From an uncultured Candidatus Saccharibacteria bacterium (GTDB taxonomy: Bacteria > Patescibacteriota > Minisyncoccia > Minisyncoccales > GWA2-38-27): a DNA stretch of 62,507 nucleotides. The stretch lies in contig CAYUSS010000005.1 of the NCBI GenBank assembly GCA_964447515.1, forward strand, positions 1 through 62,507, written 5' to 3'. Every line of letters begins with the position of its first letter. Position 1 is the stretch's first letter. Under the pieces are notes generated by a model, which saw only the letters and a program-made list of their open reading frames with translations, made no database searches and was not told where the DNA came from. The position numbers and the translations under genes are program-made. Below, piece by piece: positions 4,127 through 62,507 of the stretch.

Positions 4127-4204
4127 ACTTTTCGCTCTTATTCTTGACTTTTTAGGAAACCTTTGATAATATAAAATTGCTATCAATTCGTAATTCATAG
4201 AGCT

Positions 4205-4429
4205 ATGAAAAAAGACATACATCCTAAATATTATCCAAAGGCTCGGGTTCAGTGCGCTTGCGGGAACTCCTTTACGGTTGGCTCAGCCAAGGAGTTTATT
4301 GAGATTGAAATTTGTTCAAAATGCCATCCTTTTTATACTGGCAAGAAAAAAATTGTTGATACTCTGGGAAGAGTTGAGAAATTTAGAAAGCGATTAGCCA
4401 AAAAGCAAACAAAGAAAGCCAGGAAGTAA
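4205..4429 (+). CDS. rpmE: 50S ribosomal protein L31 (Zn-binding type)
   Basis: [23 protein letters not shown]. Confidence 0.97.
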
Positions 4430-5274: not shown

Positions 5275-6735
5275 TTAAAATATTAACTCTTCACATTTAA
5301 AAGACATAGTTCCCTGGTCTATAAAAACTTGAATACAGGAAGCTCGAGGATTAATATAGCTTTTAAAATACCAATCATATAGAGATGAATATGAACCATG
5401 GAGATAGGTCACAGTCGCTATCCATTCAGCATTATATGTCTGCTTTGCAGCGCCAGCATCTCTTAAAAATAATCCAGCTGCTAAAAAAGCGTCCAAGGGT
5501 TTCCAGGGATCAGCAAGTTTTCCAATAATAGTTTCTATTCTTTTTTCATAGAAGACCCAAGTAGTTGGCATAAACTGAGCCGGTCCCATTGCTCCTCCAT
5601 ATCCCGCATAATCAGGCGAAGGGCAAGAAACCTTAGTGCTATAAGCATCCCTATTGGGTAATTTTTCACAAATAGCCAAGAAATCATCTACATCCCCCTT
5701 TCTCCCGAGCAATCCCATCGGTTTCATTACCCCTTTAACTTGCTTCCCAGTTATTGCTCTAATGCCATCGCCTGTTTTAGAATCTTTTAAATAACACTCT
5801 CCCACATTCCTGCCTAAAGCAGATTCGCCACTAATAAGACCTATTAAGAAAGCAGGCCTGATGCCAGTCTTAGTCTCTACATACTTAGCAATTTCTATAG
5901 CCTGACCTAAATTAATCTGTTGTTCTTCTGGCAATCCAACCAACTTAAGAATCTTCGCTTCTATTTCAGCTGCTTTTTTTTCAACCTCTTCTTTTTCCCG
6001 AAGCTGTTTCTGAAATTCTTGTTCGGTTAAATTCCAATAATACTGCTGTTCTTCTTTTGTTTTGGCACTTTCGTTTTTTTGAAGGGTCTGAATTTGAACT
6101 GTTTGCTCTAAATCCCCTTTTTCTTGTCCTAAAGCGAGGCTTTGCTGTTCTAAATTTGATTTCAAATCTTTAATATTCTCTAAAAGTTCCCTGTTCTCAT
6201 TATTTAAAATCTCTAAAGCCACTAAATTGTCAAAGAAATCAGAAAGTTCTGGTTCAGATAATAAAATTTCAATAACCGGTTTCTGGTCTTCTTCATAAAT
6301 AGTTCTTAAAATACCGCTTAACTTTTCTTTGGAGCCCTCAATTTTTAAAGAAGTTTTTTCAATAGATGTTCCGGTATCTTCAATTTGAATTCCTAAATCT
6401 TTAATAACTAAATTGCTCTGGTAAATCTGGTAATTTAAGTTTTCTATTTTGTTGCTCAAACTCCAAATTTTATTCTGAAGTGTCTTTTTCTCTTCTCCGG
6501 TCTTGCTGATATCTTTTTCAATCTCGCTAATTTTTTCTTCATAAAGAACTTGGCACTCTTTTAATAAGGATTGATAATTCTCTTTTGAAAGGTTTTGCTG
6601 GCCTTTGTTAATTATTTCTTCACATCTCTCACTTAAATTTTCCTCTCCAAAAACAAAATTGCCAGAAATTGGCAATACAAAAACTAAAATTAAAATAAAT
6701 ACCAAAACGATTTTTGAAATACGAGTCATTGTCAT
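5275..6735 (-). CDS. coiled-coil (PcsB/CwlO-like) + lytic murein transglycosylase domain protein
   Basis: N-terminal TM helix, long heptad coiled coil, then ES..G.NVG and GAMGPAQFMPTTW (SLT/MltB-like). Confidence 0.8.
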   Translation of the reverse strand: MTMTRISKIVLVFILILVFVLPISGNFVFGEENLSERCEEIINKGQQNLSKENYQSLLKECQVLYEEKISEIEKDISKTGEEKKTLQNKIWSLSNKIENLNYQIYQSNLVIKDLGIQIEDTGTSIEKTSLKIEGSKEKLSGILRTIYEEDQKPVIEILLSEPELSDFFDNLVALEILNNENRELLENIKDLKSNLEQQSLALGQEKGDLEQTVQIQTLQKNESAKTKEEQQYYWNLTEQEFQKQLREKEEVEKKAAEIEAKILKLVGLPEEQQINLGQAIEIAKYVETKTGIRPAFLIGLISGESALGRNVGECYLKDSKTGDGIRAITGKQVKGVMKPMGLLGRKGDVDDFLAICEKLPNRDAYSTKVSCPSPDYAGYGGAMGPAQFMPTTWVFYEKRIETIIGKLADPWKPLDAFLAAGLFLRDAGAAKQTYNAEWIATVTYLHGSYSSLYDWYFKSYINPRASCIQVFIDQGTMSFKCEELIF

Positions 6736-7433
6736 TGTTTTTTGGATTTTTCTTTGGGTTCCTTCTCCCCCTTTTCTTTTTCTCTCTCTTCTTCTTTCTT
6801 TTCCTCCTCAACCTTCTCAACCCCTTCTACTTCTTCTCCAACCGGTTTTACTAATTCTTCTTCCACTTTCTCGGGAGGCGTAACAAGGGCTACAATTTCA
6901 TCTGCTTCTTTTCCAATCTTAACATCTTTTGGCAATTCCAAATTCTTTATTAAAATTTCATCCTCAAAAGTTTTTAAACCTTCTACATTTACTTTAATTT
7001 CATGAGGAAGATTTTGAGGCAGGGCCTTAACTGTTAATTCTTGAATTTCCTTTACTAAAGTTCCCCCTAATTCTTTTACTGCCGGAGCCTCTCCTTCAAA
7101 AACCAAAGACACAGTTGCCTCAACTTCTTCGGTGAGTATTGGCTGATAAAAATCTATATGAATCAGCTCTCCGCTTAAAGGGTCTTGTTTTACTCCATGA
7201 ACCAATACTAATGATTTCTTAATTTGTCCTGAGTCCTTTGAAGGAACCTGAAGTGAAATTAATGAACTTTCTCCGGCTTCTTTAAAAACTTTCTTAAATT
7301 CTTTTAAATCAACCCTTAGGGGTTGGCTTTTTATTTTCGGCCCATACAAAACAGCCGGTAAAATACCCTTTTTTCTTAAAAGGTTCACCTTTTTTCCAAG
7401 AACTTCTCTAATTTTAGCTCTAAGGAATAACAT
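6732..7433 (-). CDS. rplY: 50S ribosomal protein L25/Ctc
   Basis: LRKKGILPAVLYGP, HIDFY, C-terminal beta domain and acidic tail. Confidence 0.95.
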   Translation of the reverse strand: MLFLRAKIREVLGKKVNLLRKKGILPAVLYGPKIKSQPLRVDLKEFKKVFKEAGESSLISLQVPSKDSGQIKKSLVLVHGVKQDPLSGELIHIDFYQPILTEEVEATVSLVFEGEAPAVKELGGTLVKEIQELTVKALPQNLPHEIKVNVEGLKTFEDEILIKNLELPKDVKIGKEADEIVALVTPPEKVEEELVKPVGEEVEGVEKVEEEKKEEEREKEKGEKEPKEKSKKQ

Positions 7434-7503
7434 TTCTCATCTAAGCATTTAAGCATATAAACAGTTTGAAATTAAATTTTGTTTAAATGTTTAAATGTTT
7501 AAA

Positions 7504-7938
7504 TTATTTAATAATAAACTCATTAGAATAAAAGCGCTCATCCTCTTCAAACATTTCATTTATACTACATCCAACGCATGCCGGTATAGCAAGTCGGTGG
7601 GATACTGCGTCTATTAAAGGCAAGGTAAGTTCAAATGCTTTAACCTCTCCCGGACTGATACATTTTTCAACTAAATTATCAGTCAAACAGTCGGCATAAG
7701 AATAATCCTTCCATTTTCCTTCTTTTTTCTTTTCCAAATAATAAGGATAACAAGAAGAAAAACAAATGCTCTTTCTTGAATCATTTTCAATTTTTACTTT
7801 TAAAACTTTACTTGCCTCATACTCTGATTTATCAGTAATAACACTTACTTGCCCCTCTGAAGGAAGCAAAAAAGCAATTAAAATTATTATAGCTAAAACA
7901 GCTATACCTGTTCCTATTATTAAAAATTCCCTCTTCAT
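7504..7938 (-). CDS. hypothetical membrane-anchored Ig-like protein
   Basis: TM helix followed by a beta-rich domain (TDKSEY, several Cys). Confidence 0.65.
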   Translation of the reverse strand: MKREFLIIGTGIAVLAIIILIAFLLPSEGQVSVITDKSEYEASKVLKVKIENDSRKSICFSSCYPYYLEKKKEGKWKDYSYADCLTDNLVEKCISPGEVKAFELTLPLIDAVSHRLAIPACVGCSINEMFEEDERFYSNEFIIK

Positions 7939-49679: not shown

Positions 49680-50240
49680 TTAGGAGTTGGTGAAGAGTTT
49701 TCTAAGTAAAATAAGAGCTCGCCTATGCCTGCTTTTAATAGTATTCAAAGGCTCTCCCAGAACTTCAGCAATTTCTCTAAAAGTAAAATGATCATTATAT
49801 CGAAGGAATAAGACCATGCGGTTTTTTGGAATCAATTGATTCATCACCGCATTAAGTGTTTCCGTGATGCCAATTCGTTCAAGAATCTCGTTAGGAAGGG
49901 GGGCGGGATTCGCAAGAGTCTCTATAAGTATGTTTTCTCCCTCTTCATTCTCGAAATTAGAAAAAGGTATGGCTTTTTTCTTCCTGAGCCAGTCAATGGA
50001 AGTATTTTTGGCAATACTAAAAATCCAGGTTTTGAAGTTTTTGTTTTGGTCAAATTTTTTCAAGTTCCGCCATACCTTCACAAAAACTTCCTGCGTTATA
50101 TCTTCGGCTTCCTGTTCATCGCCAACATAGCGATAAACAAAGCTATAAATCGGCTTGAGATAGCTCTTTATCAAAGCCTCAAATGCTCCCTCATCACCTG
50201 CGAGATAATCAATTATAAGTTGTTTATCTGAACGATTCAT
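49680..50240 (-). CDS. ECF RNA polymerase sigma factor
   Basis: AEDITQEVFVKVW, FKTWIFSIAKN..ID, region 4 TFREIAEVLGEPLNTIKSR. Confidence 0.93.
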   Translation of the reverse strand: MNRSDKQLIIDYLAGDEGAFEALIKSYLKPIYSFVYRYVGDEQEAEDITQEVFVKVWRNLKKFDQNKNFKTWIFSIAKNTSIDWLRKKKAIPFSNFENEEGENILIETLANPAPLPNEILERIGITETLNAVMNQLIPKNRMVLFLRYNDHFTFREIAEVLGEPLNTIKSRHRRALILLRKLFTNS

Positions 50241-50603: not shown

Positions 50604-53072
50604 TCAGCGATTTAAGACTTTATCAATTGATTTATCAAGTTCTTTTAGTTCGTGTTGGTGTTTCGCCTTAAAGGAAGTGGAAACTTGGATGTGCGAAATA
50701 ATGCTTTTTTGTAAATCCGAATGTCTTTTCGGATTTGGTATTTGGACTTCTTTTATCACATTAAACGAAACGGCGTCTCTAATACTACCAGTAGCCAATA
50801 ACTCTAAATAAAGGCGATAGAAATTATTGCGAAGAATAGAAATAATGTATTGTGGTTCAATTTCTTTCTTCTTTCCATTTTTTACTCTCATAACAACATA
50901 GGCGGGACTAACAAGCATCCCATCTAATTCTTTCGGGACGACTCCTATTGAACCAACATTGATACGATAAGGGTTGTATGCAATGTCTCCAGCCCGAACC
51001 ACTTTATATTTCTGATTGATGTCCTCGCCCAATCTTTCCTCATTAAAAAGCACTAAACCCTCGTTAATAACAGATAGTATTGGATAATACTTTGATGGTT
51101 CTTCACGGGGGTCAATCTTATCTTTAACCTCGTCAACAAAATTACCAAGTTTTACTCTTTCAAACTTCCTTCGTTCCAACTCTCGTCTAAACCAGTAATA
51201 TCTGGCATCGAATCTGTCTTCTAACGAGCCCGAATCAACCACAAAAGACAAGTCTTCGCTGACATTCTTCCCGCTTAAAAATTGTTCCCAGCCCAAGAGA
51301 ACCTTATCTAAATCAGTTTTTTCGCCTTCTTTTATTGTCGGCTTACCATTAGGCTCATATCCAATATCTTTCACAACTCCCATAAAGATTTTGTGAGAGC
51401 GTTTAACTCCGCCCTTTTTCTTTTTTAGAAACAACAAACTGGTATTGATTGTAGGAACTCCGCTCGGAGTAAAGGTATGTGCTGGCAACGAAACAACCCC
51501 GACTATCTGGGCGTTTTCTAAAATAAACTCTCGCACATATCCCATTGATGGATTTCCTAAAACTCCGTCTGGTAAAACTATCCCCATTCTTCCCCCTTCT
51601 TTTAAGTAATCTAAACATCTCTCAATAAATAAAACTTCTGTTCTTTGTTGTTTTCTGCCGTTGGTTTTAGAGCCCAGAAAATAATCTGCTAAATAACGAT
51701 GCTCTTTTTCTGACACACTTGCACCAAAGGGCGGATTGGTAAGCAACAAAGTGTATTTACCCAATTTAATATCTCGGCGGGGATTAAACTTTGATACCAC
51801 ATCAAGAGAATCATTATTTTCTATATTGGAATGACCATCCTCGTGGATAATCATATTCATCATTGCTATTCTCGATAGCTGACTATTTACTTCTACCCCA
51901 TAAAGATTATAAAGAGCAAAATCACTCCACTGGCGTTTTGCATTATCTGGTTCAAACTTCGCTTCAATTTCTTTCCTGACTTTATCTAAAATATAAAGAA
52001 GAAAACCACCGCTTCCGCACGCTGGGTCAATAACCACATCGTCAACGACTGGCTTCATAAAATCTACCATAAACCTAACGACTTCTCGTGGGGTAAAATA
52101 CTGACCCATTTCGCCTCTAAATATCTTTTTAAGAAATGTCTCAAAAGCCCTACCCTTAGAATCCAGCTCGGTTCTTGAAAGAGAAATACCCTGTAATTTT
52201 TCTACCACGCTATAAAGCACTTCATCGCTTAACCTCAATGGTGCTTCGAAAACATCGGGGTCTCTTTGTTGAGCTTTTTGGTAAATGCCACGAACCCTAT
52301 CCGCTACCTCTTTTGCTGTTTCGTGAGTTCCGACTTGAAAATTATAATAATCGCCGATAGGCGTAAGCGTTCGTTCGTCTTTATCTTTACAAAACATTAA
52401 CTTGCTCATTTCATCAAAAGCCTCTGCTGGGTTCATCTTGCCGCCCTGCCAGATAATGTCGTGGCACTGCTGAAGACGAGATTGAAGTTCATACAAATTA
52501 GCTGGTTTCAAATCCCATTCAGGGTCGGCTTTTTTGAACTTAAACTTTACAACTTTCCCATAGCGAATAGGAATGTCAGAGATAATGTTTTTATCTCGCT
52601 CCTGCGGGTCAAAACCAGCTACATCAAAGGCAACCTCAATACTTCCCGCTACCATCATCGCATAGGGGGCTCTTAAAGAGTTTGCGTTCCCGAACGCCTG
52701 CTCAATCGCTTGGGAGATTGCTGACTGCGGTATGCCTTCTTTTTTACACTCCACGACAATATAGGGACGCTTTCTGGCATCGTCTTCATAAATTACAATG
52801 TCGGCAGAATCCGATGGGGTGCGTCTTGGCACAACCACTTCTAAATCAATGCGATTTTCTGGATATTTGTATTTATCAATTAGTTTTACATAAAAAGACG
52901 CCCGCACGATTTCTTCGGGGTCTTGAAAATTATAAGACTTGCCTGTTTTGAGGTAAGTTATTCTGCCATCTTTAATAGAAAGCAGTTTGTTCTTTTCGCC
53001 AAGTGCAATGAGATGCTGAAAGGCGTCAAAAGAATCTTTATGATTTTGATTCTCATTCTTATTTTTAGGCAT
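50604..53072 (-). CDS. fused restriction-modification enzyme (HsdR_N nuclease + N6-adenine MTase + single TRD; type IIG/IIB-like)
   Basis: SADIV..VVECKK nuclease motif, GQYFTPR, DPACGSGG, TNPPFG, C-terminal HsdS-like segment. Confidence 0.85.
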   Translation of the reverse strand: MPKNKNENQNHKDSFDAFQHLIALGEKNKLLSIKDGRITYLKTGKSYNFQDPEEIVRASFYVKLIDKYKYPENRIDLEVVVPRRTPSDSADIVIYEDDARKRPYIVVECKKEGIPQSAISQAIEQAFGNANSLRAPYAMMVAGSIEVAFDVAGFDPQERDKNIISDIPIRYGKVVKFKFKKADPEWDLKPANLYELQSRLQQCHDIIWQGGKMNPAEAFDEMSKLMFCKDKDERTLTPIGDYYNFQVGTHETAKEVADRVRGIYQKAQQRDPDVFEAPLRLSDEVLYSVVEKLQGISLSRTELDSKGRAFETFLKKIFRGEMGQYFTPREVVRFMVDFMKPVVDDVVIDPACGSGGFLLYILDKVRKEIEAKFEPDNAKRQWSDFALYNLYGVEVNSQLSRIAMMNMIIHEDGHSNIENNDSLDVVSKFNPRRDIKLGKYTLLLTNPPFGASVSEKEHRYLADYFLGSKTNGRKQQRTEVLFIERCLDYLKEGGRMGIVLPDGVLGNPSMGYVREFILENAQIVGVVSLPAHTFTPSGVPTINTSLLFLKKKKGGVKRSHKIFMGVVKDIGYEPNGKPTIKEGEKTDLDKVLLGWEQFLSGKNVSEDLSFVVDSGSLEDRFDARYYWFRRELERRKFERVKLGNFVDEVKDKIDPREEPSKYYPILSVINEGLVLFNEERLGEDINQKYKVVRAGDIAYNPYRINVGSIGVVPKELDGMLVSPAYVVMRVKNGKKKEIEPQYIISILRNNFYRLYLELLATGSIRDAVSFNVIKEVQIPNPKRHSDLQKSIISHIQVSTSFKAKHQHELKELDKSIDKVLNR

Positions 53073-53326: not shown

Positions 53327-55135
53327 ATGAGTATGAAAAATGAAAATGTGAAATCAAAAATCAAAAAAGAGCAACTGCTTTCAGAACAGACATTTATCAA
53401 TTATTGCGGTTATGACGAAGCCAACATTCACGGGGGAAGGACAAGCAGGTTAGATATTGACCAAAAATTTATTAAAGCGGCTGAAAAAGATGGTTTTATA
53501 AAACCTTTATTGAAATCAAAGGAATCAGTTAAGCAAAAGGACGGGGATGAAAAGTTGGAAATGGTTAATTATTATAGCCCTTTTCAAATTTATCTTGTTT
53601 TGGAATTATCGAAAAATATAATTGATGAGAATGGCTATCTACGAAGTCCTTCTAACCTTGAGTGGCAAAAAGAAAAAAACTTCAGATGGGTTAACTGGGG
53701 CGGGGGTATGTCCCTAACAATAGATAAGAAAAGGAGATGGGAACGCAACCCGAAGTTTGCGTCTGAAAATCTCCCCTTATTCTGTGATTATTTTCATCGT
53801 TTTCTTGCGTTTATACACACTTTTGAATTAAAAACAGACTATATCAGAGAAATTGAAGAACGCAGGCATTTCTCAAAATTGCCATCAGTTTCTTATAACT
53901 TTGAATCTCTTAAGGACGGGGGCTTAAAATTGCTTAAAAATCATAAATTGGACATAAAAACTCTTAATCTACTTAGAAAGGAAGTGGCACAACTTGCGAC
54001 AATGATTGACCCGCTCGAACATTGGTATTACTACATCAAACGACATACTCAATTTAGAAAAGACCTACTTAAGGGCGATGCGGCGTTGGCACAAGAACTC
54101 TATCGAATCTATGATTTAATAACAATAATTGTAGAGACAATGACTGGAGAAAAATCAGAACCGCTATCTGATTTTTTATATCCAGATATCACCCCCTTCT
54201 TAATACAGAAGGTAAATTATCAAAGTGGAGAAGATGTAAAAGCTCTACAATTTGCTATCCAGCAATTCAAAGAATGGAAAAAGAAAAAAGAAAATAAGCG
54301 TTTTGCCACCAAAGAAATAATGAAAAAATTGAATGCAGTTGAGAAAAAAATAAAAGGCTACGAACAACGATATGGCGATAGAAGTTATGCTGGTAGCGTA
54401 AGGACAATAGAAGCTGAAGAAAATATAAAACTTGATGATTTAGATGAAGAAACCAAAAAAGATGTTAAAGACACGCTCAAACAAATGAAAGAACAAAAAA
54501 TGAAGGTTGAGTTAGGACAAGAAATTTCTCAAGCTATAGAACATAGACTCTCTGAATTAAGGCGTGAATTAGATGGCATCTTCTATGATGTTGGCGGAAA
54601 ACTTCGGGACAGAGAAAATGAGTGGTGGCAAAAAGAACGAAATTTCCATAACATCTTCTGGATGGCTAACCGAGAGAAACTTGCAAAACTTCCAAGAGAA
54701 GAACAATTAAAATTATCCAGAAAAGAATCTGATAAAATTGTCAGGAAGGCGAAGGAGTGGGGACGGCGAGGAGAAGAATTTGCTAATTCCGTCTCAAGAT
54801 ATGCTGACCTTGTTTTTTGTAAGGTTTGTAGAAAAAATCCGATTCAACTCCATATTGAAAATAACAACTTGAATATGTGGGAAGTTTCTCGCTCGGTAAT
54901 CTGTGATGAGTGTATACGGACTAAAAAACTTGAGGAAATGGAATCGGGGGAATGGAAGTGTTCGTGCGGTAAAATTTTATACAAGTTTGTGCATAATAAT
55001 ATCATCGCTCTTAGAACACAAAATAAAGTAGATATTAAGCTCGAAATCGCATATGGAAAAAGTCTATTAGAGGCTACTTGCCCTGAATGCGGCAGAAAAA
55101 ACCAACGAAGAATAGACTGGGGATGGATGCCGTAA
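53327..55135 (+). CDS. large hypothetical protein with C-terminal Cys clusters
   Basis: 602 aa; CKVC, CDEC, CSC, CPEC; no family recognised. Confidence 0.7.
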   Translation: MSMKNENVKSKIKKEQLLSEQTFINYCGYDEANIHGGRTSRLDIDQKFIKAAEKDGFIKPLLKSKESVKQKDGDEKLEMVNYYSPFQIYLVLELSKNIIDENGYLRSPSNLEWQKEKNFRWVNWGGGMSLTIDKKRRWERNPKFASENLPLFCDYFHRFLAFIHTFELKTDYIREIEERRHFSKLPSVSYNFESLKDGGLKLLKNHKLDIKTLNLLRKEVAQLATMIDPLEHWYYYIKRHTQFRKDLLKGDAALAQELYRIYDLITIIVETMTGEKSEPLSDFLYPDITPFLIQKVNYQSGEDVKALQFAIQQFKEWKKKKENKRFATKEIMKKLNAVEKKIKGYEQRYGDRSYAGSVRTIEAEENIKLDDLDEETKKDVKDTLKQMKEQKMKVELGQEISQAIEHRLSELRRELDGIFYDVGGKLRDRENEWWQKERNFHNIFWMANREKLAKLPREEQLKLSRKESDKIVRKAKEWGRRGEEFANSVSRYADLVFCKVCRKNPIQLHIENNNLNMWEVSRSVICDECIRTKKLEEMESGEWKCSCGKILYKFVHNNIIALRTQNKVDIKLEIAYGKSLLEATCPECGRKNQRRIDWGWMP

Positions 55136-55167
55136 TCCCTTTGTCGTCTATTGTTATAGAGAGAATG

Positions 55168-55196
55168 TTGACAGCGGAAAATCAGTTTGCTAAAAT
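55168..55196 (+). promoter_or_regulatory. sigma70 promoter
   Basis: TTGACA-17-TAAAAT. Confidence 0.7.
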
Positions 55197-55256
55197 TAAA
55201 TTAGCTAAAATAAATAACCAGTTAGTTAAGGGCTAACCCAAGTAGCGATAAAAAGG

Positions 55257-55309
55257 GCTACTAATGAATATCCAGTAATCATACTGGGTGTCTGTTAGTA
55301 GCTTTTTTT
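55257..55309 (+). terminator. leader terminator upstream of the sigma2-only gene
   Basis: GCTACTAA/TTAGTAGC outer stem, inner stem, T7 tract. Confidence 0.65.
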
Positions 55310-55350
55310 GTTGCTAATCACTCATATGATTACTGAGAATAAGTAATTGT

Positions 55351-55650
55351 ATGAGAATGCGTTTATTTAATTCAAAATACCAAGATGACATTCTTGGAAA
55401 AGCTAAAACATATAATATCCCAAATATGGAATGGCAAGATGTTGCCCAAGAGTTAGATATAGCTCTCTGGCAAAACTTAGGTAAATTTCAGGGTCGCAAT
55501 AACGCCAGCGAGCGGACTTTTGCGATGAAAGTAATGCGGAATAAAATCATTGACTTGGCTAAATCCGCAAACCGAAAGAAAAGATTGATTGACAGCTACC
55601 ATCTTTCGCTCGATGAGCTGATGGAGCGAGAGTTCGCCAGCAGTTATTAA
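55351..55650 (+). CDS. sigma-70 region 2-only protein
   Basis: QDVAQE...LW...KF....ERTFA...MRNKIIDL...NRKKR (SigH/ComX-like region 2); ends before any region 4 HTH. Confidence 0.7.
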   Translation: MRMRLFNSKYQDDILGKAKTYNIPNMEWQDVAQELDIALWQNLGKFQGRNNASERTFAMKVMRNKIIDLAKSANRKKRLIDSYHLSLDELMEREFASSY

Positions 55651-55724
55651 GGATTTGTCGTCTATTGTATTAGAAGGATAAATTAAAAAATTAAAGGTAG
55701 CTAAGGGCTACCCCAGATAGCAAT

Positions 55725-55787
55725 AAAAAGGGCTATCAATACTACTCTGCGATTTTTTCGTGGGGTGTTATTGATAGTCCTTTTTTT
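55725..55787 (+). terminator. second leader terminator upstream of the replication operon
   Basis: AAAAAGGGCTATCAATA/TATTGATAGTCCTTTTT stem plus T tract. Confidence 0.65.
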
Positions 55788-55824
55788 CATTAACGCCCAG
55801 TCGCAGAGACTGGGCGTTTTTATT

Positions 55825-56109
55825 ATGGCTAAAACAAAAACAACCAAACAAGATGGCAGATACTTCCGCATTTCAAGTTTTTATGTGGCGGCTTTCTTAT
55901 TCGCCAAAGGATTGGAGCTGGTGAATGTAGATAAAATCACCGACCCAAAAAGAGCACAGTTTGTTTTTAGAGATTCACCAGAACGAGAAATTTTAGTAAA
56001 AAGCTACAACTTTGCTAAAGAAGACTCGCCAGAAGCGATGATAGATGCCCGTAAGTTTGTAATGGCAATAAAAATGCTAAAAGACAAACTTTATCAAGAT
56101 AAGTTTTAA
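55825..56109 (+). CDS. DUF5659-like small DNA-binding protein
   Basis: SSFYVAAFLFAKG.EL..VD, RAQFVF. Start set at MAKTK. Confidence 0.65.
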   Translation: MAKTKTTKQDGRYFRISSFYVAAFLFAKGLELVNVDKITDPKRAQFVFRDSPEREILVKSYNFAKEDSPEAMIDARKFVMAIKMLKDKLYQDKF

Positions 56110-56111
56110 TT

Positions 56112-56297
56112 ATGGTCAGCCAACAGCTTATTGAAGAACTAAAAATAATCATCAAAGAAGATTATGGAAAAGACTTAGAAATAAAAGAGGTTTCCCAAAT
56201 TGCAAATAATTTAGTGGGCTATTTTAACCTGTTGGCGAAAATTTACCATCAAATGAAAACTCACAATAATGAGGATAACGAAAACACAAACAACTGA
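56112..56297 (+). CDS. small hypothetical protein
   Basis: 61 aa helical ORF coupled to its neighbours. Confidence 0.6.
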   Translation: MVSQQLIEELKIIIKEDYGKDLEIKEVSQIANNLVGYFNLLAKIYHQMKTHNNEDNENTNN

Positions 56298-56910
56298 AGA
56301 ATTTGATTGGGAGTTTTGGAATTGTATTTGGGATTTAGAAAAGGAATGGAAGGCTTCCCTGCCGAGATTTACTGACAAGGAATTGCTGGAGATATTTCCA
56401 GAAGCAAAACAGATTATTCCAGAAAAAATAAAAGAATGGGAACGAAAAAGGGCTGAGTTTTCGGACACCATAAAAAAGAAGCTAACGCTAATCAAATACA
56501 AAATCACAGATGAATTTTCCCAGTGGTTCTGGCGGGAGTGGGTCAAGGTCAATGAGGGTCAGGAGCTTCTAAAAGTTGATGGACATATAGCACGGCTCAA
56601 AAGATTGTTTGCTGTGGCACGGGGGTGGGGGTCAAAAGGCAGAATTACTGAAGAAAAGATACAACAAGCCCTACACACACCAATTGAAAATATCGCTAAT
56701 CAACATCTTAAACTTTACAAAAGTGGCAGAGCATTAGTCGGACCTTGCCCCTTTCATCCTGAAAAACGCCCATCGTTCTTCATTTATCCAGAAACAAATA
56801 GTTGCTGGTGCTACGGGTGCAATCAGGGCGGAGATATTATTAACTTCGTGAGATTGCTTCACGGCTATTCCTTTAAGGAAGCAGTAAACTATCTCATTGG
56901 AGAAAAATGA
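56269..56910 (+). CDS. CHC2 zinc-finger (DnaG N-terminal-like) protein
   Basis: GPCPFHPEKRPSF, WCYGC..GGDII.FV. Confidence 0.88.
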   Translation: MRITKTQTTEEFDWEFWNCIWDLEKEWKASLPRFTDKELLEIFPEAKQIIPEKIKEWERKRAEFSDTIKKKLTLIKYKITDEFSQWFWREWVKVNEGQELLKVDGHIARLKRLFAVARGWGSKGRITEEKIQQALHTPIENIANQHLKLYKSGRALVGPCPFHPEKRPSFFIYPETNSCWCYGCNQGGDIINFVRLLHGYSFKEAVNYLIGEK

Positions 56911-58250
56911 ATATGAGCATAGATAATCACAAAGACCAAATTTTAGAACAAAAAGTCCAAGAAATTGAAAAAACTATCCCAGAAAAAATAGATACATCTC
57001 AATTTAAGTTAATTTCTTCTCAAGAGCTGATTGAAATACTTGGACTAACAATCAAAAAAGATGAGGAGAATAAACTAATAACCTTTTTATGCGAACTCTC
57101 GGCTTACACTGAAGATTCGCAGTTCAACATTAGCTTCAATGCTCCATCCTCAACTGGAAAATCCTATATCCCGACAGAGATTGCTCGATTATTCCCAGAA
57201 GAAGATGTAATTGAGATTGGCTATTGCTCCCCAACTGCTTTCTTCCACGATATTGGGGAGTATCAAAAAGAAAAAAATGGATACATAGTTGACTTGTCCA
57301 GAAAGGTTTTAATCTTTCTTGACCAGCCCCACACCCAGCTTTTGGAACGGCTAAGACCTTTGCTCTCCCACGATAAAAAGGAAATCAGTTTGAAAATTAC
57401 AGACAAGACTCAGAAATACGGGCTCAAAACCAAAAATGTTTTATTAAAAGGTTATCCTGCGGTAATTTTCTGCACAGCTGGTCTAAAAATTGATGAACAG
57501 GAAGCGACACGATTTCTGCTTTTAAGCCCAGAGACAAACCAAGAAAAAATCAGAGAAGCAATCCACGAAAAAATCAAAAAAGAAACTGACGCTGACACCT
57601 ACCAAAAATGGCTGGATAGCAAACCAGAAAGGAAAATCTTAAAAGAGAGAATAAAAGCAATAAACCAAGAAAATATCAGAGAGATAAAAATAGCTTCGCC
57701 AGAGAAAATTGAAGAAAGATTCTTTAAGAAAAACAAAATGCTCAAGCCCAGACACTCAAGAGATATAGGACGGCTTATCTCGCTAATTAAATCATTCGCT
57801 TTGCTTAATTTATGGTTTAGGGAACGGAATGGTTCAGCCATCATAGCGAACGATGAAGACATTGAAGGGGCTTTCAAAATTTGGGACGCCATCTCTGAAA
57901 GCCAAGAACTTAACCTACCGCCCTATATTTACCACCTCTATCACGAAGTTATCTTAACTGCTTGGAATGACAAAAATAAAAACAGGGCTGAAGACTTTGA
58001 AGAAATAACTGGAGAACTGGGCTTAACCCGCCAAGATATAATTCAAAAACATTATCAGGTTTATGGACGATTTATAGCCGACTGGCAATTACGACAGCAA
58101 ATCATTCCAATGCTGGAAACTGCGGGTCTAATAATGCAGGAGCAAGACCCGTCAGATAAGCGAAAAATGTTAATTTACCCTACCGCCTCGTTCACTATCT
58201 CTAAAGGACAAAACAATAGTGAGTTGAAGGGTGGGGTAAATAAAATATGA
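56907..58250 (+). CDS. P-loop NTPase (replication helicase-like) with C-terminal winged helix
   Basis: Walker A-like APSSTGKS, Walker B-like LIFLDQ, EQEATRF. Confidence 0.72.
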   Translation: MNMSIDNHKDQILEQKVQEIEKTIPEKIDTSQFKLISSQELIEILGLTIKKDEENKLITFLCELSAYTEDSQFNISFNAPSSTGKSYIPTEIARLFPEEDVIEIGYCSPTAFFHDIGEYQKEKNGYIVDLSRKVLIFLDQPHTQLLERLRPLLSHDKKEISLKITDKTQKYGLKTKNVLLKGYPAVIFCTAGLKIDEQEATRFLLLSPETNQEKIREAIHEKIKKETDADTYQKWLDSKPERKILKERIKAINQENIREIKIASPEKIEERFFKKNKMLKPRHSRDIGRLISLIKSFALLNLWFRERNGSAIIANDEDIEGAFKIWDAISESQELNLPPYIYHLYHEVILTAWNDKNKNRAEDFEEITGELGLTRQDIIQKHYQVYGRFIADWQLRQQIIPMLETAGLIMQEQDPSDKRKMLIYPTASFTISKGQNNSELKGGVNKI

Positions 58251-58771
58251 CTACAGAAAAACAAGTAAAAGCCAATAGAGAAAATGCCAAAAAGGGCGGA
58301 GTGAAAACGCCCGAAGGTAAAGCTATTGTCCGATATAACGCCCTAAAACACGGATTGCTGAGCAAAGAGGTATTATTGGGCAATGAGGAAGAAAAAGACC
58401 TTGTGGGGCTTTGTAGGCGATTAAAAACCGAATTAAAACCAGCTTCAGAGATTGAGCAAGTTCTGGTTGATAGAATTATAGCCAATTTCTGGAGATTAAG
58501 GCGAGCTATGCGAGTAGAACGAGAAATGATAGAGGATGACTGCAAAGATGAAGATTGGAAAGGAAATATCAAACAAAAAACTCTTGGAGAAGCATTTAGT
58601 TATGATTTTACGAATGCTGACACTTATGGAAAACTTATCCGCTACGAAACCAGTATCGAAAGAGGTATTTATAAGGCTTTGCACGAATTACAAAGAATTC
58701 AATCAGCCCGCAGAGGAGAAAAACCCCCTGCCCCGTTAGCTGTAGATGTGGATATTTCAACTGATAAATAA
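58247..58771 (+). CDS. hypothetical protein, TerS-like N-terminus
   Basis: ANRENAKKGGVKTPEGK...NALKHGL motif, LIRYETSIER. Confidence 0.6.
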   Translation: MTTEKQVKANRENAKKGGVKTPEGKAIVRYNALKHGLLSKEVLLGNEEEKDLVGLCRRLKTELKPASEIEQVLVDRIIANFWRLRRAMRVEREMIEDDCKDEDWKGNIKQKTLGEAFSYDFTNADTYGKLIRYETSIERGIYKALHELQRIQSARRGEKPPAPLAVDVDISTDK

Positions 58772-58920
58772 AATGGGTTTGTTCCGTAAAAGAGTTAGGT
58801 TTTGTTAGGTTTTCAAAAATTACCAAAAAGTGCTTATTTTAAGCTAAAATGAAGTGTCTAAACACTTAAAATATGGTTATAAATGTTTAATGATTTCGGT
58901 AATTTTTTGGAAAAAATTTT

Positions 58921-59517
58921 ATGGGAAGATGGAGTTTTTCAAGTAAACAAGAAGCTGATTATCTTAAAAAGGTAGAAATGTGGTGGCTCAAGAAATACGG
59001 CTATCTTAATGGTTGGAAATCTGGCGGGATTGAATGGAAAAGTGGATTTTCAGACGAGAAAAGTAGTATAGGAATTGAGGTCTGCACAATAGAGAATTAT
59101 ATCCGCTTTTTCTATACTCAAACAGAACAAAACGGCGAGAAAAAGAATTTTGATTATAAGGTGCAACTAACTACCACTCCTTGTAATTACGGCGGGGTAA
59201 GATACTGGTTTATATGCCCGCTTGTAAAGAATGGTCAACCCTGCCATAGACGGGTAGGAGTGCTTTATAAAGCAGGAGATTACTTCGGCTGTCGGCATTG
59301 CTATGACCTGACCTACAGCTCCAAAAATGAGAATCGTAGATATAAAAGCTATCCTTTATTCTTCTGGCTTAAAAGCTGGAAAAAAATTGAGGAATTGGAA
59401 GAAAAGATAAAAAGACCATATTATAGAGGTAAGCCCACACGCACACAAAGAAGATTGGAAAAAATTGAAAACCGAATGATACCTTACCTTGACTTGGTAA
59501 AGAAAGATGGATTATAA
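58921..59517 (+). CDS. conserved mobile-element hypothetical protein with Zn ribbon
   Basis: TTPCNYGGVRYWFICP, CHRRVGVLY, GCRHCYDLTYSS. Confidence 0.7.
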   Translation: MGRWSFSSKQEADYLKKVEMWWLKKYGYLNGWKSGGIEWKSGFSDEKSSIGIEVCTIENYIRFFYTQTEQNGEKKNFDYKVQLTTTPCNYGGVRYWFICPLVKNGQPCHRRVGVLYKAGDYFGCRHCYDLTYSSKNENRRYKSYPLFFWLKSWKKIEELEEKIKRPYYRGKPTRTQRRLEKIENRMIPYLDLVKKDGL

Positions 59518-59648
59518 TGAAAATGTAGCCCAATGTTGCAAATCCACCCGTGAGATTTTTAATGGCTTCCGCCTTTGAAGGGGCGGTCTGCCAGAAGCCA
59601 ACCCTCACGGGAAAGCAACTGGGCTACCAGACCGTCCCTTTGAGTTAT

Positions 59649-61235
59649 ATGAAAAATCTTACAAAAGCAGTAATATACTGCCGTGTGTCATCAAGAGAAC
59701 AGGAAGAAACTGGTTATTCTCTCCCAGCTCAAGAGAAGTTTTTGAGGGATTATGCCCAAAAGAATGGCTTTGGAGTTGCTAAAGTTTTTGCGGTATCAGA
59801 ATCAGCTGGCGGGAAAGTGAGACGAAAAATCTTTAACGAGATGATGGATTACATAAGGAAAAACAAGATTGCGATTGTTATTGTAGAAACCACTGACCGC
59901 TTAACAAGAAACTTCGCCGATGTGCCAATAATTGACGCTTGGGTTCTGGAAAACGAAACTCATCAAATTCATTTAGCCAAAGAAGGATGTATATTGCACA
60001 AAAACTCTAAGTCGCACGAATGGTTTATGTGGCGAGTTAAAGTGGCTACTGCCGAATACTATGTAAGACTGCTTTCTGAGAATGTGAAAAAAGGACAGAA
60101 AGAAAAACTTGCACAAGGATGGCTACCAACTAGACCGCCTCTTGGATATAAAACAATCGGCGAAAAAGGACATAAAACCCATATCATAGATGAGGCGAAA
60201 GCTCCAATGGTTAGAAAAATGTTTGAGTTATATTCCACTGGCAATTACTCGCTTAACGCTTTGGTAAAAGTTATGTATCAAGAAGGATTAAGGAATGAGA
60301 ATAATAGAATTGTTGGCAGAAGCAGAATACACGAGTTGCTTTCTGACCCGTTTTATTACGGCGAGAACCGATGGAAAGGAGAGATTTCCGCTGGACAGCA
60401 AGAAATCCTAATCTCTAAGGAGTTATTTGATAAGGTGCAGGAGAAACTTACCCGAAAAATTAACAGTCCTCAATATAAAAAACATTTGCCAGTGTTTAAG
60501 GCAAAGATTAAATGCGAGGAATGCGGCGGAACTATAACTTGGGAAATTCAACGAGGTCATTGGTATGGACATTGCAATCATTACAAAAATTGCTCCCAGA
60601 AAACTTGGTTAAGACAAGAAAAAGCAGAAGAACAACTATTCCCGCTTTTTGACAAAGTAGCACCTAAAAACGAAAGGATTATAAAGTGGCTGGAAAAGGC
60701 ATTAAAAGAAAGCCATACTGGCGAAATTGATTATAACACCAAACAAAGGGAAGAACTTAACAGAATAATCAAAATGGCTGACGAAAGAATGGAAAAAGCA
60801 TACCGAGATAAATTGGATAGCAAAGCTCCTGCAATTCTTTGCGAAAAAATAATAGCTGATTCTGATAAAGAGAAAAAAGATGCCTTAGAATCTCTAAATA
60901 AATTAGGCGAGACCAGAATAAAGTATTACGAAGCTGGCTACGCTATCCACGAGCTCGCTCTGCACGCCAAAGAGATATACCAAAGCGTAAAAGCCAAGAC
61001 AGAAGACAAAAGACTGCTTTTGAGCCAAGTATTTTCGAACTTAAGCCTAAATGAAGGAAATATAAAGCCAAATTACACTCTGGCGTTCGAATTTCTATCA
61101 AAATGGATGCCTTTAGTGAATAATACTTTCGAACAGCCAAAAATAGGGCAAAATAAACGGAAAACGGACGATTTGGCGTCCGTTTGTCCTGAAATGCTCC
61201 GGCGGCAGGATTCGAACCCCTCTCGGTCGCCCTAG
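59649..61235 (+). CDS. large serine recombinase (resolvase + recombinase + Zn ribbon)
   Basis: AVIYCRVSS, YSLPAQ, DRLTRN, PPLGY, CEECG. Start set at MKNL (59649). Confidence 0.93.
   Translation: MKNLTKAVIYCRVSSREQEETGYSLPAQEKFLRDYAQKNGFGVAKVFAVSESAGGKVRRKIFNEMMDYIRKNKIAIVIVETTDRLTRNFADVPIIDAWVLENETHQIHLAKEGCILHKNSKSHEWFMWRVKVATAEYYVRLLSENVKKGQKEKLAQGWLPTRPPLGYKTIGEKGHKTHIIDEAKAPMVRKMFELYSTGNYSLNALVKVMYQEGLRNENNRIVGRSRIHELLSDPFYYGENRWKGEISAGQQEILISKELFDKVQEKLTRKINSPQYKKHLPVFKAKIKCEECGGTITWEIQRGHWYGHCNHYKNCSQKTWLRQEKAEEQLFPLFDKVAPKNERIIKWLEKALKESHTGEIDYNTKQREELNRIIKMADERMEKAYRDKLDSKAPAILCEKIIADSDKEKKDALESLNKLGETRIKYYEAGYAIHELALHAKEIYQSVKAKTEDKRLLLSQVFSNLSLNEGNIKPNYTLAFEFLSKWMPLVNNTFEQPKIGQNKRKTDDLASVCPEMLRRQDSNPSRSP
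61195..61218 (-). other. tRNA 3'-end fragment, putative att core (tRNA-Gln-like)
   Basis: Minus strand GGTTCGAATCCTGCCGCCGGAGCA = T-loop, 3' T-stem, acceptor strand and G73; no 5' half present. Confidence 0.7.
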
Positions 61236-61356: not shown

Positions 61357-62507
61357 TCAAAAAATTGAAATTATTCTCCAAGCTAAACCAGCAAATAAAA
61401 GACCATAAACTATTGATGATGCTGTTAAAGCTATTGCTTTTTTAATTCCGAATTCTTTAATAAGCATTCCCAAAGCAATTATGCATGGGATTCCGATTGT
61501 AGAAACTACACCAAATGTATAAATTTGGAGAGAAGTCAGAGTTAAAGATATTTTACTGCCCAAAACTGATAAAAGCATCGCTCCAGTTAAATCTTTTTGC
61601 AAAAATCCAAATGCCAAAGGGATAACAATCACAGCAGGCAATCCTAGCCAAGTAGTGATTGGCGAAAGAGGTTCTACTACAATGTTGGTAAGACCTAATA
61701 TATCCAAAATTCCATAAGCTATTCCTCCAATTACCAATAGAGGCATAACTATATATACAAAATCTTTCATTCTAACCCAGCTTTTAGCAAGAACATTTTT
61801 AACCAAAGGCTTTCTATAAGGGGGTAATTCTAAAAGTAAAGGTTCACTTTTTATATGAATAACTTTTTTTATCCCAAAAGCCCAGATCAAACCAGCAATT
61901 AATAAAGTAGCAAAAACAGAAAAAGCCAGCTTTATGCCTCCATAAAATCCAACTATCCCCATTATTATAGCAATTCTTGAGGAACAAGGTACAAAAGCAA
62001 ATAAAGAAGCAGTATGAAATTGCTCTTTTTTAGATGACAAGACCCTGGTAGCTCTAGTTGCTGGTGCAGTACAACCAAAGCCTAATGCTAAAGGAATAAA
62101 TGATTTTCCGGGTAAACCTAATTTTTTAAGAAATCTTTCTGCATTAACAATAAATCTTGAAAGAAGCCCTATATCCTCTAACAAACCTAAAAGCAAATAA
62201 AACAAGAAAACATAAGGCAGGGCAATGGAAACACCTGCTACAAGTCCGGTTAAACCTTGAACTAATATCATAGCAATAAGAGAGTGTTCCGCTATGCCAA
62301 AAGAAGATAAAAAGCTTTCTGTCAATCCCATAAGAATGCCTTGTATTGAATTGCCAAGATATAACAATGCCCCAAAGATAGCAAGAAGAAATAAAATAGT
62401 AGTAAACGGGCCCCAAGTTTTATGTAAGAGAATTTGGTCAATTTTCTCTTCAAATTTTTTTTCTTTTTCTACAGGAACTATTTGAGTAACTTTTTCTGCT
62501 ATAAATG
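61357..62507 (-). CDS. feoB: FeoB-like ferrous iron transporter, C-terminal part (5' end beyond the window)
   Basis: Frame stays open to the window edge (DQILLHKTWG); LEDIG, GKSFIPLALGFGCTAPA, PCSSR, LLLELPPYR. Confidence 0.85.
   Translation of the reverse strand, partial: FIAEKVTQIVPVEKEKKFEEKIDQILLHKTWGPFTTILFLLAIFGALLYLGNSIQGILMGLTESFLSSFGIAEHSLIAMILVQGLTGLVAGVSIALPYVFLFYLLLGLLEDIGLLSRFIVNAERFLKKLGLPGKSFIPLALGFGCTAPATRATRVLSSKKEQFHTASLFAFVPCSSRIAIIMGIVGFYGGIKLAFSVFATLLIAGLIWAFGIKKVIHIKSEPLLLELPPYRKPLVKNVLAKSWVRMKDFVYIVMPLLVIGGIAYGILDILGLTNIVVEPLSPITTWLGLPAVIVIPLAFGFLQKDLTGAMLLSVLGSKISLTLTSLQIYTFGVVSTIGIPCIIALGMLIKEFGIKKAIALTASSIVYGLLFAGLAWRIISIF

Follow-up and report, generated by a model that had tools for sequence, protein, structure and literature searches.

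A region-2-only sigma-family protein of Patescibacteria mobile elements, its linked -10-like DNA box and an attenuator-type leader RNA

In bacteriophage T4, gp55 carries a sigmaR2-homology domain that sits on the clamp helices of RNA polymerase, its promoters show no conservation of a -35 element, and gp55 alone supports basal initiation (PMC7892883). In Bacillus subtilis, CGTC and CGTA are variants of the -10 element in promoters of the extracytoplasmic function (ECF) sigma factors sigmaX, sigmaW, sigmaM and sigmaV (PMC5758882). A census of ECF sigma factors required both Pfam domains, that of region 2 and that of region 4 (PMC7826278), and a family possessing region 2 only is for this reason excluded from it. 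Here we describe such a family, starting from a 99-residue protein encoded in a 62.5-kb stretch of DNA (contig CAYUSS010000005.1, positions 1 to 62,507, referred to throughout as the window) from a bacterium of the Candidate Phyla Radiation (CPR; Patescibacteria). Its gene, called sigma2 below, is accompanied by a conserved DNA box and a structured leader RNA. For comparison, 61 related loci (L-numbered) were retrieved; the features of the window are collected in Table 1. A preliminary description of the same DNA, made from the sequence alone, had proposed a sigma factor that reads only a -10 element and is flanked by two copies of its target.

The 99-residue protein matches a single Pfam family, Sigma70_r2 (PF04542; E = 8.3e-11), with residues 9-75 covering profile positions 4-70/71. 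Sigma70_r4 is absent from the Pfam scan of the protein, and the chain ends some 20 residues past region 2. There is also a match to TIGR02937 (E = 1.2e-9), whose score of 38 bits lies under the 42.9-bit whole-protein cut-off because half of the model is absent from the protein. The ECF and SigH models of NCBIfam match over region 2 alone, and the only PHROGs match is the generic sigma family phrog_1740. An AlphaFold model calculated with a 39-sequence alignment has four helices and a predicted local distance difference test (pLDDT) score of 83.8. The best PDB neighbours found by Foldseek are sigma domain 2 structures (probability ~1.0, root-mean-square deviation 1.8-1.9 Å over 55-65 residues), among them sigmaA domain 2 with -10 single-stranded DNA and Escherichia coli sigmaE region 2 with a -10 element. 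Residues invariant in the family include those of the DxAQE motif of region 2.2, which contacts the beta-prime clamp helices, together with R55-T56-F57 and N64 in the helix equivalent to regions 2.3/2.4.

All 75 close homologues come from Patescibacteria assemblies, are 95-155 residues long and contain region 2 only. A profile search of 1.84 billion representatives returned 677 clusters at E <= 1e-3; among the 150 top-ranking cluster representatives, 122 fall below 150 residues. The presence of region 2 and absence of region 4, as first described, are therefore borne out by the Pfam matches, the fold model and a family-wide length of ~100 residues, and the possibility raised at the time, that homologues are full-length and the gene is a frameshifted pseudogene, is ruled out by the same homologues. 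We conclude that the 99-residue protein is a single-domain, region-2-only member of the sigma family. A 152-residue relative on an IMG/VR contig (L057, 5911-6369) has both Sigma70_r2 and Sigma70_r4; since it keeps region 4, the short proteins descend from a two-domain mini-sigma, of which the L057 type is likely to be the ancestral form. On this contig, a sequence resembling the box described below is found 30 nt past the mini-sigma stop codon. An exact-sequence look-up of the 99-residue protein in a contig index gave no match, and a full-text literature search found no description of such CPR sigma2-only proteins.

The repeat from which the preliminary description set out, the 15-mer TTTGTCGTCTATTGT, does occur exactly twice in the window, at 55140-55154 and 55654-55668, both times on the + strand. 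Copy 1 is placed 4 nt after the TAA of the gene for a 602-residue protein (p602) upstream of sigma2, and copy 2 is placed 3 nt after the TAA of sigma2 itself. The repeat is real, but the similarity extends further, both to a box of ~23-24 nt, of which the 15-mer is the core, and to a structured module. The box is asymmetric, with the consensus tTTGTCGTmTAttGTAnTAGAGG. A weight matrix built from 31 distinct sites was used to scan 308 kb and found the box only at two positions beside the sigma2 gene, each time on the + strand; in shuffled windows, this threshold yields ~0.2 hits per 62.5 kb. The upstream box lies just past the stop of the upstream gene, 180-227 nt before the sigma2 start, in about 30 loci. 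The downstream box lies 2-6 nt past the sigma2 stop in 18 loci, all of them in a close subclade. By the same scan, a multi-promoter regulon is ruled out. With three mismatches allowed, the 15-mer has eight matches in the window against 1.9 expected (14303, 17233, 18694, 24776, 43362, 53717 and 60153 on the - strand and 47876 on the + strand), most of them on the gene-rich strand. None passes the weight matrix, and they are probably an effect of composition and codons.

Across loci whose sigma2 proteins are 43-97% identical, nothing else in the region is conserved as well as the box. The box shows no indels, no palindrome and no covariation among loci and, as it lacks indels and its changes are uncompensated, we regard it as a linear, oriented site. 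A palindromic operator or an RNA hairpin is ruled out, changes in one half of the box being uncompensated in the other. The main variation is an exchange of CGTC and CGTA in the core. This toggling between documented ECF -10 variants agrees with the earlier assignment of CGTCTA as an ECF-type -10 element. Upstream of the two copies lie coding sequences unrelated to each other, and a -35 element common to both is accordingly missing, again as first proposed. A quasi-repeat can be read within the box (55142-55163 and 55656-55677), where GTCGTCTA is followed ~11 nt later by GTAGTAGA in most loci, the second half reading GTTATAGA and GTATTAGA in the two window copies; speculatively, region 2 could bind here twice in succession, first at a -10 element and then at a -10-like pause element.

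Beyond clade 1, the sigma2 group to which the window belongs, a second, distant clade (clade 2) consists of sigma2-only proteins of 76-110 residues with 35-46% identity. Its contigs share no gene but sigma2 with the window element, and have no p602, no DUF5659 (the product of the next gene downstream of sigma2 in clade 1) and no RNA module. A related box of equal length, GTCGTmT-TTAAk-AgTAgAGG, is nevertheless found at or within ~30 nt of the sigma2 stop in seven of about ten clade-2 loci. In four of them (L041, L043, L058 and L059) the best hit of the clade-1-trained weight matrix in the whole locus, on either strand, is at the sigma2 stop, for which we estimate a chance probability of ~1e-6. 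As sigma2 is the only gene common to all box-bearing loci, we take the protein and the box to be a cognate pair, and p602 and DUF5659 are excluded as box readers. Co-occurrence of the motif with homologues, which the preliminary description had put forward as a check, thus extends to a second clade, and this linkage is the strongest support for its idea.

In L058, L059 and L045 the large terminase gene follows 0.3-1.9 kb downstream of sigma2, which there occupies the position of phage late-gene regulators such as RinA (PMC3152322), and the order on the phage contigs is regulator gene, box, structured leader and late genes. The offset of the box from the end of the preceding co-oriented open reading frame (ORF) ranges from -29 to +30 nt, with overlap of the ORF end in L040 and L059, which rules out a mechanistic coupling of the box to the upstream stop. 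The preceding ORF itself varies, being p602, a sigma2 gene of either clade or, in L037, a small ORF. In L058, the box and leader are separated from the terminase genes by some 1.5 kb (6371-7859) that is nearly free of + strand ORFs of at least 35 residues; the exceptions are a 42-residue ATG ORF at 7335-7463 and a 29-residue ORF starting at 6371. This stretch could encode a structured RNA, or the genetic code of the phage might be a different one.

The repeat in the window's two intergenic regions, described at first as a bare motif, proves to be a whole module of ~120-150 nt that includes a covarying hairpin and one or more strong terminators. The module comprises the box, a tetraloop hairpin P1, segment a, the purine-rich GAnAnAGAAGG, segment b, an inner hairpin, segment c and U7; b and c form a long intrinsic terminator with which an antiterminator pairing, a:b, competes. 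RNAalifold analysis of 38 non-redundant modules returned P1 and the long b:c hairpin, with compensatory changes in 19 of 27 pairs. For P1 these changes affect all six pairs, and 96% of cells are paired. The alternative a:b helix, whose loop (GAUAAAAAGG in copy 1) is conserved, covaries from G-C to A-U at two pairs; it is 88.6% paired, as against 32-39% when slid, a value reached by none of 500 shuffles. The b:c stem is lengthened by pairs between an A-run and a U-run. Folding energies are -40 kcal/mol for copy 1 (z-score -6) and -44 kcal/mol for copy 2 (z-score -6.3). In the predicted folds, RNA truncated before c adopts P1 and a:b, and the full-length RNA adopts the b:c terminator. The structure is assigned to + strand RNA because of its many G-U pairs. 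We conclude that the leader is an attenuator-type terminator/antiterminator RNA in which a:b and b:c are mutually exclusive.

In copy 2 the module is followed by a second terminator, which ends 3 nt before the DUF5659 ATG and is conserved among the downstream copies. A covariance model finds the module only at positions beside the sigma2 gene, in clade 1 only, with scores of 68-110 bits. No Rfam family reaches its threshold (the best, 23S-methyl, scores 36.6 bits against 50), and no conserved leader peptide was found in the leader regions. Pairing of the box with leader segment b is ruled out, there being no covariation between the two. The distant clade-1 loci have no such module between sigma2 and DUF5659, the two genes abutting or overlapping there, and the second box-plus-leader copy is on this ground a duplication specific to the close subclade. 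The sequences indicate that the module was duplicated there, lost its sigma70 promoter and gained the second terminator. The two flanking copies of the preliminary description are present in the window, but the second is not ancestral. A terminator-like hairpin with a U-run stands 0-4 nt before the AUG of DUF5659 (55792-55827) and of the clade-2 sigma2 genes in L038, L041, L043, L044, L057, L058 and L059. A hairpin that abuts the AUG leaves no room for a Shine-Dalgarno sequence, and this may point to RNA processing, to RNA stability or to unusual translation initiation.

A canonical sigma70 promoter had been reported in the first copy only, and our analysis agrees: the sequence TTGACA-17-TGcTAAAAT, a near-consensus match, is found in copy 1 and not in copy 2. 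Among 27 distinct upstream regions, about 22 have a sigma70-type promoter matching at 9 or more of 12 positions, 6-25 nt downstream of the box; the match is merely a poor one in four upstream regions and in every downstream copy. Because this spacing varies, the box is not an activator site serving the sigma70 promoter but an element in its own right, and a fixed-distance activator or upstream (UP) site is ruled out. Two low-depth contigs from relatives, from runs of uncertain type that are possibly DNA, cross parts of the locus. One reads from the sigma2 coding region through the box into P1, and the other across the upstream terminator into the sigma2 gene. A contig from an aquatic run labelled RNA-Seq (run X29, record 5) has 47 nt unlike L010 and matches that locus (4197-4293) from the first base of the box onwards; the box is accordingly the 5' edge of a mobile or conserved module in another context.

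The sigma2 fold, the absence of region 4 throughout the family, the linkage of box and gene and the RNA structures with their alternative pairing are established. The reading that we favour, with roughly even confidence, is that the box is a gp55-like promoter read by the sigma2-only factor through the -10 element and bubble alone, and gated by the leader attenuator. What we infer here is that the protein binds core polymerase and the box, that transcription initiates at the box and that the terminators are passed. By homology, the protein would bind the beta-prime clamp helices of the host core RNA polymerase. It would read the non-template strand of the ~23-nt box, with GTCGTmT as an ECF-type -10 element and TAGAGG, at its fixed distance, lying at or just past the start site. 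The whole of the specificity would come from the opened bubble, a -35 contact being unneeded, as in T4 gp55. In copy 1, the tandem sigma70-type promoter may supply seed expression. Both promoters would feed the leader, in which P1 is followed by the choice between the a:b antiterminator and the very stable b:c terminator. Expression of sigma2 would be low by default and, by positive feedback through the box, self-reinforcing upon read-through. The duplicated module would put the genes from DUF5659 to the recombinase under the same factor.

Several points weigh against this promoter reading. The conserved ~23 nt are far longer than a -10 element, and the role given to the 3' half, TAGAGG, is a guess. 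Each element has one or two boxes, with no support on the scale of a regulon. The position of the box, always just behind a co-oriented ORF, fits a compact genome or a site acting on arriving polymerase. RNA started at the box would have to cross one strong terminator in copy 1 and two in copy 2 before it reached a gene; a plain promoter model fails on these terminators, and an extra step, attenuation or terminator resistance, therefore has to be assumed. Of the public RNA runs searched, none contained the window, and those of relatives gave a few low-depth contigs of 150-270 nt.

The terminators and the ORF-trailing position of the box would be accounted for if the box were a loading or pause site, at which the sigma2 protein joins polymerase elongating from the upstream gene and confers resistance to termination in the manner of Q, N or RfaH; we think this unlikely but credible. 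Bound to the clamp helices, the protein would read the box in the non-template strand of the bubble, in the way that region 2 of sigma70 acts at promoter-proximal -10-like pause sites and RfaH at ops. Strong intrinsic terminators always follow the box, two in tandem in copy 2, and the box is close behind a co-oriented ORF whichever that ORF is. A factor devoid of regions 3.2 and 4 could remain on the polymerase, the contig spanning the sigma2 coding region, box and P1 might derive from such a transcript, and the two halves of the quasi-repeat could, speculatively, be its -10 and pause elements. The order on the phage contigs parallels that of lambda Q-PR'-tR'. With Q at PR'-qut-tR' and RfaH at ops, the locus has in common a regulator gene, a short specific site, one or more strong terminators and an operon, and a site reader that would sit on the clamp helices; the likeness is one of architecture alone, there being no relationship in sequence or fold to Q or NusG/RfaH. 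On the other side, we know of no precedent for a sigma2-only antiterminator. The sigma70 promoter of copy 1 lies downstream of the box, whose sequence its transcripts never meet, and the a:b/b:c pairing already offers a local, non-processive route past the first terminator. Moreover, conservation over ~23 nt exceeds an elongation bubble of ~12 nt, and the RNA contigs are of low depth and may contain DNA. Rather improbable, in our estimate, is that a one-domain factor of ~100 residues acts as both sigma and Q-type antiterminator at one composite site. Sigma release requires the nascent RNA to displace regions 3.2 and 4. A factor without these release regions might use the first half of the box to open a promoter that has no -35 element, remain bound to the polymerase, engage again at the -10-like second half and pass the terminators; DUF5659 or p602 might then act on the conserved leader RNA in the integrative elements.

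The remaining explanations separate the protein from the box or give it a partner. The protein could be a sigma decoy that occupies the clamp helices, as a host shut-off or a copy-control brake, the box being read by a host factor or serving as a signal at the RNA level. Region 2.2, with the core-binding motif, is indeed conserved more strictly than any other part, the searches revealed neither a sigma4 partner nor a co-activator, and small polymerase-binding inhibitors are common in phages. We nevertheless consider a decoy improbable: sigma2 is the only gene shared by both box clades, as expected of a cognate pair, the residues R55, T56, F57 and N64 of the DNA-contacting helix are invariant as well, the box core is an ECF-type -10 sequence, and the 62-kb host window has no further box of the kind that a host-factor site would lead one to expect. 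A split sigma factor of the SigO-RsoA type, in which a separate region 4 protein from the element or the host reads a -35 element, has a precedent in that system (PMC7826278, PMC8103513). Like SigO-RsoA (YvrI-YvrHa) of B. subtilis, the locus has a stand-alone region 2 polypeptide co-transcribed with a small partner gene (PMC8103513), DUF5659, which is translationally coupled to sigma2 in the distant loci, and a full-length ECF sigma gene lies nearby (49680-50240). However, the defining region 4 subunit is missing. No Sigma70_r4 match at E <= 0.1 was obtained among the eight annotated proteins scanned between p602 and the recombinase gene, so that the search for a separate sigma4 partner suggested in the preliminary description ended without one. 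The DUF5659 model (pLDDT 84) is beta-alpha-beta-beta-alpha-alpha, a mixed fold and not the helical fold of sigma4, and has no PDB neighbour, which rules DUF5659 out as the missing sigma4; the box copies have no common -35-like element, and clade 2 has the box and lacks DUF5659. A split sigma is thus very improbable. That the 15-mer is a functionless part of a duplication, the promoter of a T7-like polymerase or the operator of a dimeric repressor is largely excluded, and we leave these together only the slightest chance. Duplication of the whole module did give rise to the second copy, in length the box matches a T7/SP6-type promoter, its distant versions end in ...CTATAGAGGGG, and a partial TCTA-N6-TAGA symmetry can be read in it. 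The box is, on the other hand, the best-conserved part and is found again in clade 2, where the remainder of the module is lacking, and the C-to-A change in its left half is nowhere matched by a compensating change in the right. Polymerase-like genes are absent; p602 shows no match to a polymerase in Pfam, PHROGs, NCBIfam or PDB profile searches and is absent from clade 2, which rules it out as a T7-like polymerase.

Of the described systems, T4 gp55 is the one whose working the sigma2 system would most resemble, yet it is not a member of the gp55 family. In both, a phage or mobile element encodes a sigma-family protein with a region 2-like domain only and a target without a -35 element (PMC7892883, PMC2988020), and in relatives of the window element sigma2 adjoins late (terminase) genes. 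Unlike gp55, with which it has no detectable sequence relationship, the sigma2 protein matches region 2 of the ECF/SigH type and is about half as large, and no gp33-like co-activator or sliding clamp was recognised among the island proteins in Pfam, PHROGs and NCBIfam scans. DUF5659, of mixed alpha/beta fold, differs from the five-helix gp33 (PMC7892883). The T4 late promoter is an 8-bp motif, whereas the site described here covers ~23 nt, has a CGTC/CGTA core and is followed by terminators.

The ECF-type region 2 and the candidate site upstream of its own gene recall autoregulation by sigmaW, sigmaX, sigmaM and sigmaV of B. subtilis, and the CGTC/CGTA -10-like core recalls the ECF regulons of that organism (PMC5758882); the pairing with a housekeeping-type promoter is a further likeness. 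Unlike ECF sigma factors, however, the family lacks region 4 throughout, and has no AAC-type -35 element and no recognisable anti-sigma gene. The sigma2 family descends from ECF-type sigma factors and fails their region 4 and -35 features. With RinA, ArpU and LtrC it shares a small regulator gene just upstream of packaging genes and a terminator before terS (PMC3152322), but RinA resembles sigma region 4 and not region 2, and the order differs: the late promoter of RinA phages comes after the terminator, the box described here before it. The leader has the features of terminator/antiterminator leaders, with exclusive, covarying a:b and b:c helices, a U-run and conserved loop and junction nucleotides; unlike described attenuator families, it has no Rfam match.

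Table 1. Positions of the sigma2 locus features in the window
Feature	Positions	Strand	Remarks
p602 gene, 602 aa	53327..55135	+	TAA at 55133-55135; directly 5' of sigma2 gene
Box copy 1, TTTGTCGTCTATTGTTATAGAGAG, with the 15-mer inside	55140..55163	+	weight matrix 36.1 bits; putative -10/bubble element
Sigma70-type promoter TTGACA-17-TGcTAAAAT	55168..55196	+	11/12 + TG; start expected ~55203
P1 hairpin, leader copy 1	55221..55237	+	6 bp + tetraloop; covariation
Antiterminator hairpin a:b, copy 1	55241..55262	+	AGTAGC 55241-55246 : GCTACT 55257-55262
Long terminator hairpin b:c, copy 1	55247..55312	+	c = 55294-55302, inner hairpin, U7 55303-55309
sigma2-only gene, 99 aa	55351..55650	+	TAA 55648-55650; Pfam, NCBIfam and PHROG sigma matches
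Box copy 2, TTTGTCGTCTATTGTATTAGAAGG	55654..55677	+	weight matrix 37.9 bits
P1 hairpin, leader copy 2 (GGTAGC...GCTACC)	55696..55712	+	compensatory with respect to copy 1
Antiterminator hairpin a:b, copy 2	55716..55737	+	GATAGC 55716-55721 : GCTATC 55732-55737
Long terminator hairpin, copy 2	55725..55787	+	U7 at 55781-55787
Second, independent intrinsic terminator	55792..55821	+	11-bp stem, 7 G-C pairs, then U5
DUF5659 gene, 94 aa	55825..56109	+	Pfam PF18903; synteny
Remaining co-oriented operon	56112..61235	+	p61, DnaG zinc-finger-only protein, p447, p174, p198, serine recombinase
DnaG zinc-finger-only protein, 213 aa	56269-56910	+	CHC2 zinc finger
p447, 447 aa, of unassigned family	56907-58250	+	
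Large serine recombinase	59550-61235	+	last gene of element

The window is chromosomal, as shown by a 16S rRNA gene at 1-986 and a tRNA-Thr gene at 1266-1338. DNA of the element is present in sequencing runs X1-X4, from salt-marsh or groundwater samples. The co-oriented block at 53327-61235 runs from p602 through sigma2, DUF5659, p61, the DnaG zinc-finger protein, p447, p174 and p198 to the recombinase, and its gene order is kept in L002, L003, L010, L023 and L026. As this order recurs in many loci, the blocks form a family of ~8-kb integrative elements of CPR bacteria, and the carrier of the sigma2 gene in the window is such an element. In all clade-1 loci with enough sequence, p602 adjoins the sigma2 gene on its 5' side, and DUF5659 is the next gene in every clade-1 locus. 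The start of DUF5659 is the ATG at 55825, not position 55828; in the sigma2 gene, an alternative in-frame ATG at 55357 would give a protein of 97 residues.

In the p602 protein, four cysteine pairs of the CxxC type are invariant, as is the C-terminal motif ...DWGW..*. The 37 homologues of p602 are all annotated as hypothetical, and none has a Pfam match. A 21-member p602 profile gives a weak match to the zinc ribbon of TFIIS domain III (E = 0.014), a lead only, in which the spacing of the four cysteines is that of the zinc ribbon and the acidic hairpin is absent. A structure search with the DUF5659 model matched only uncharacterised Caudovirales phage proteins. With 168 or more homologues, DUF5659 is more numerous than the sigma2 protein and hence also occurs without it; a full-text literature search found no description of it. 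The replication operon of the preliminary description is partly justified: its genes include a DnaG-like protein, a 447-residue protein of unknown family and a serine recombinase, but the DnaG-like protein has only the CHC2 zinc finger (residues 136-210), with no match to TOPRIM or to a catalytic domain. In PADLOC, this protein matches the DnaG-like parts of defence reverse transcriptases. Assignment of the island to a defence system is rejected, a methyltransferase-type gene and the DnaG zinc finger being the only matches among its proteins.

Several genes around the element deserve mention. On the opposite strand, the recombinase is followed by a feoB-like gene with Gate and FeoB_C domains (61357-62367, -), and the junction of the two is likely to be the right-hand boundary of the element and its integration site. 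The full-length ECF sigma factor referred to above (-, 186 residues, Sigma70_r2 and r4) is encoded 3 kb to the left of the element. It is followed on the same strand by two small ORFs that match no family, and the three may be a host ECF/anti-sigma unit. Divergent from p602 is the gene for an 822-residue methylase-type protein (50604-53072, -), which combines an HSDR_N-like N-terminus, an N6 DNA methylase domain and a C-terminus resembling type I specificity subunits. Homologues with 27% identity occupy the same position in L001, L009 and L010, and this protein may belong to the element.

If the favoured reading is correct, the 99-residue protein would be the smallest natural sigma factor known, and promoter recognition by region 2 alone would have evolved a second time, independently of T4 gp55 and from ECF-type sigma factors. 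The leader RNA, with its clear covariation, adds a structured element not described before. Given the small size of both factor and candidate site, bubble-only promoter reading could be tested on them directly by biochemical and structural means, and the pair could serve as a compact orthogonal transcription switch. Sigma factor censuses that demand both region 2 and region 4 have a blind spot, through which the sigma2-only family is discarded. In the CPR, whose transcription biology is almost unexplored, such factors would be widespread, with hundreds of sequence clusters in phages and mobile elements.

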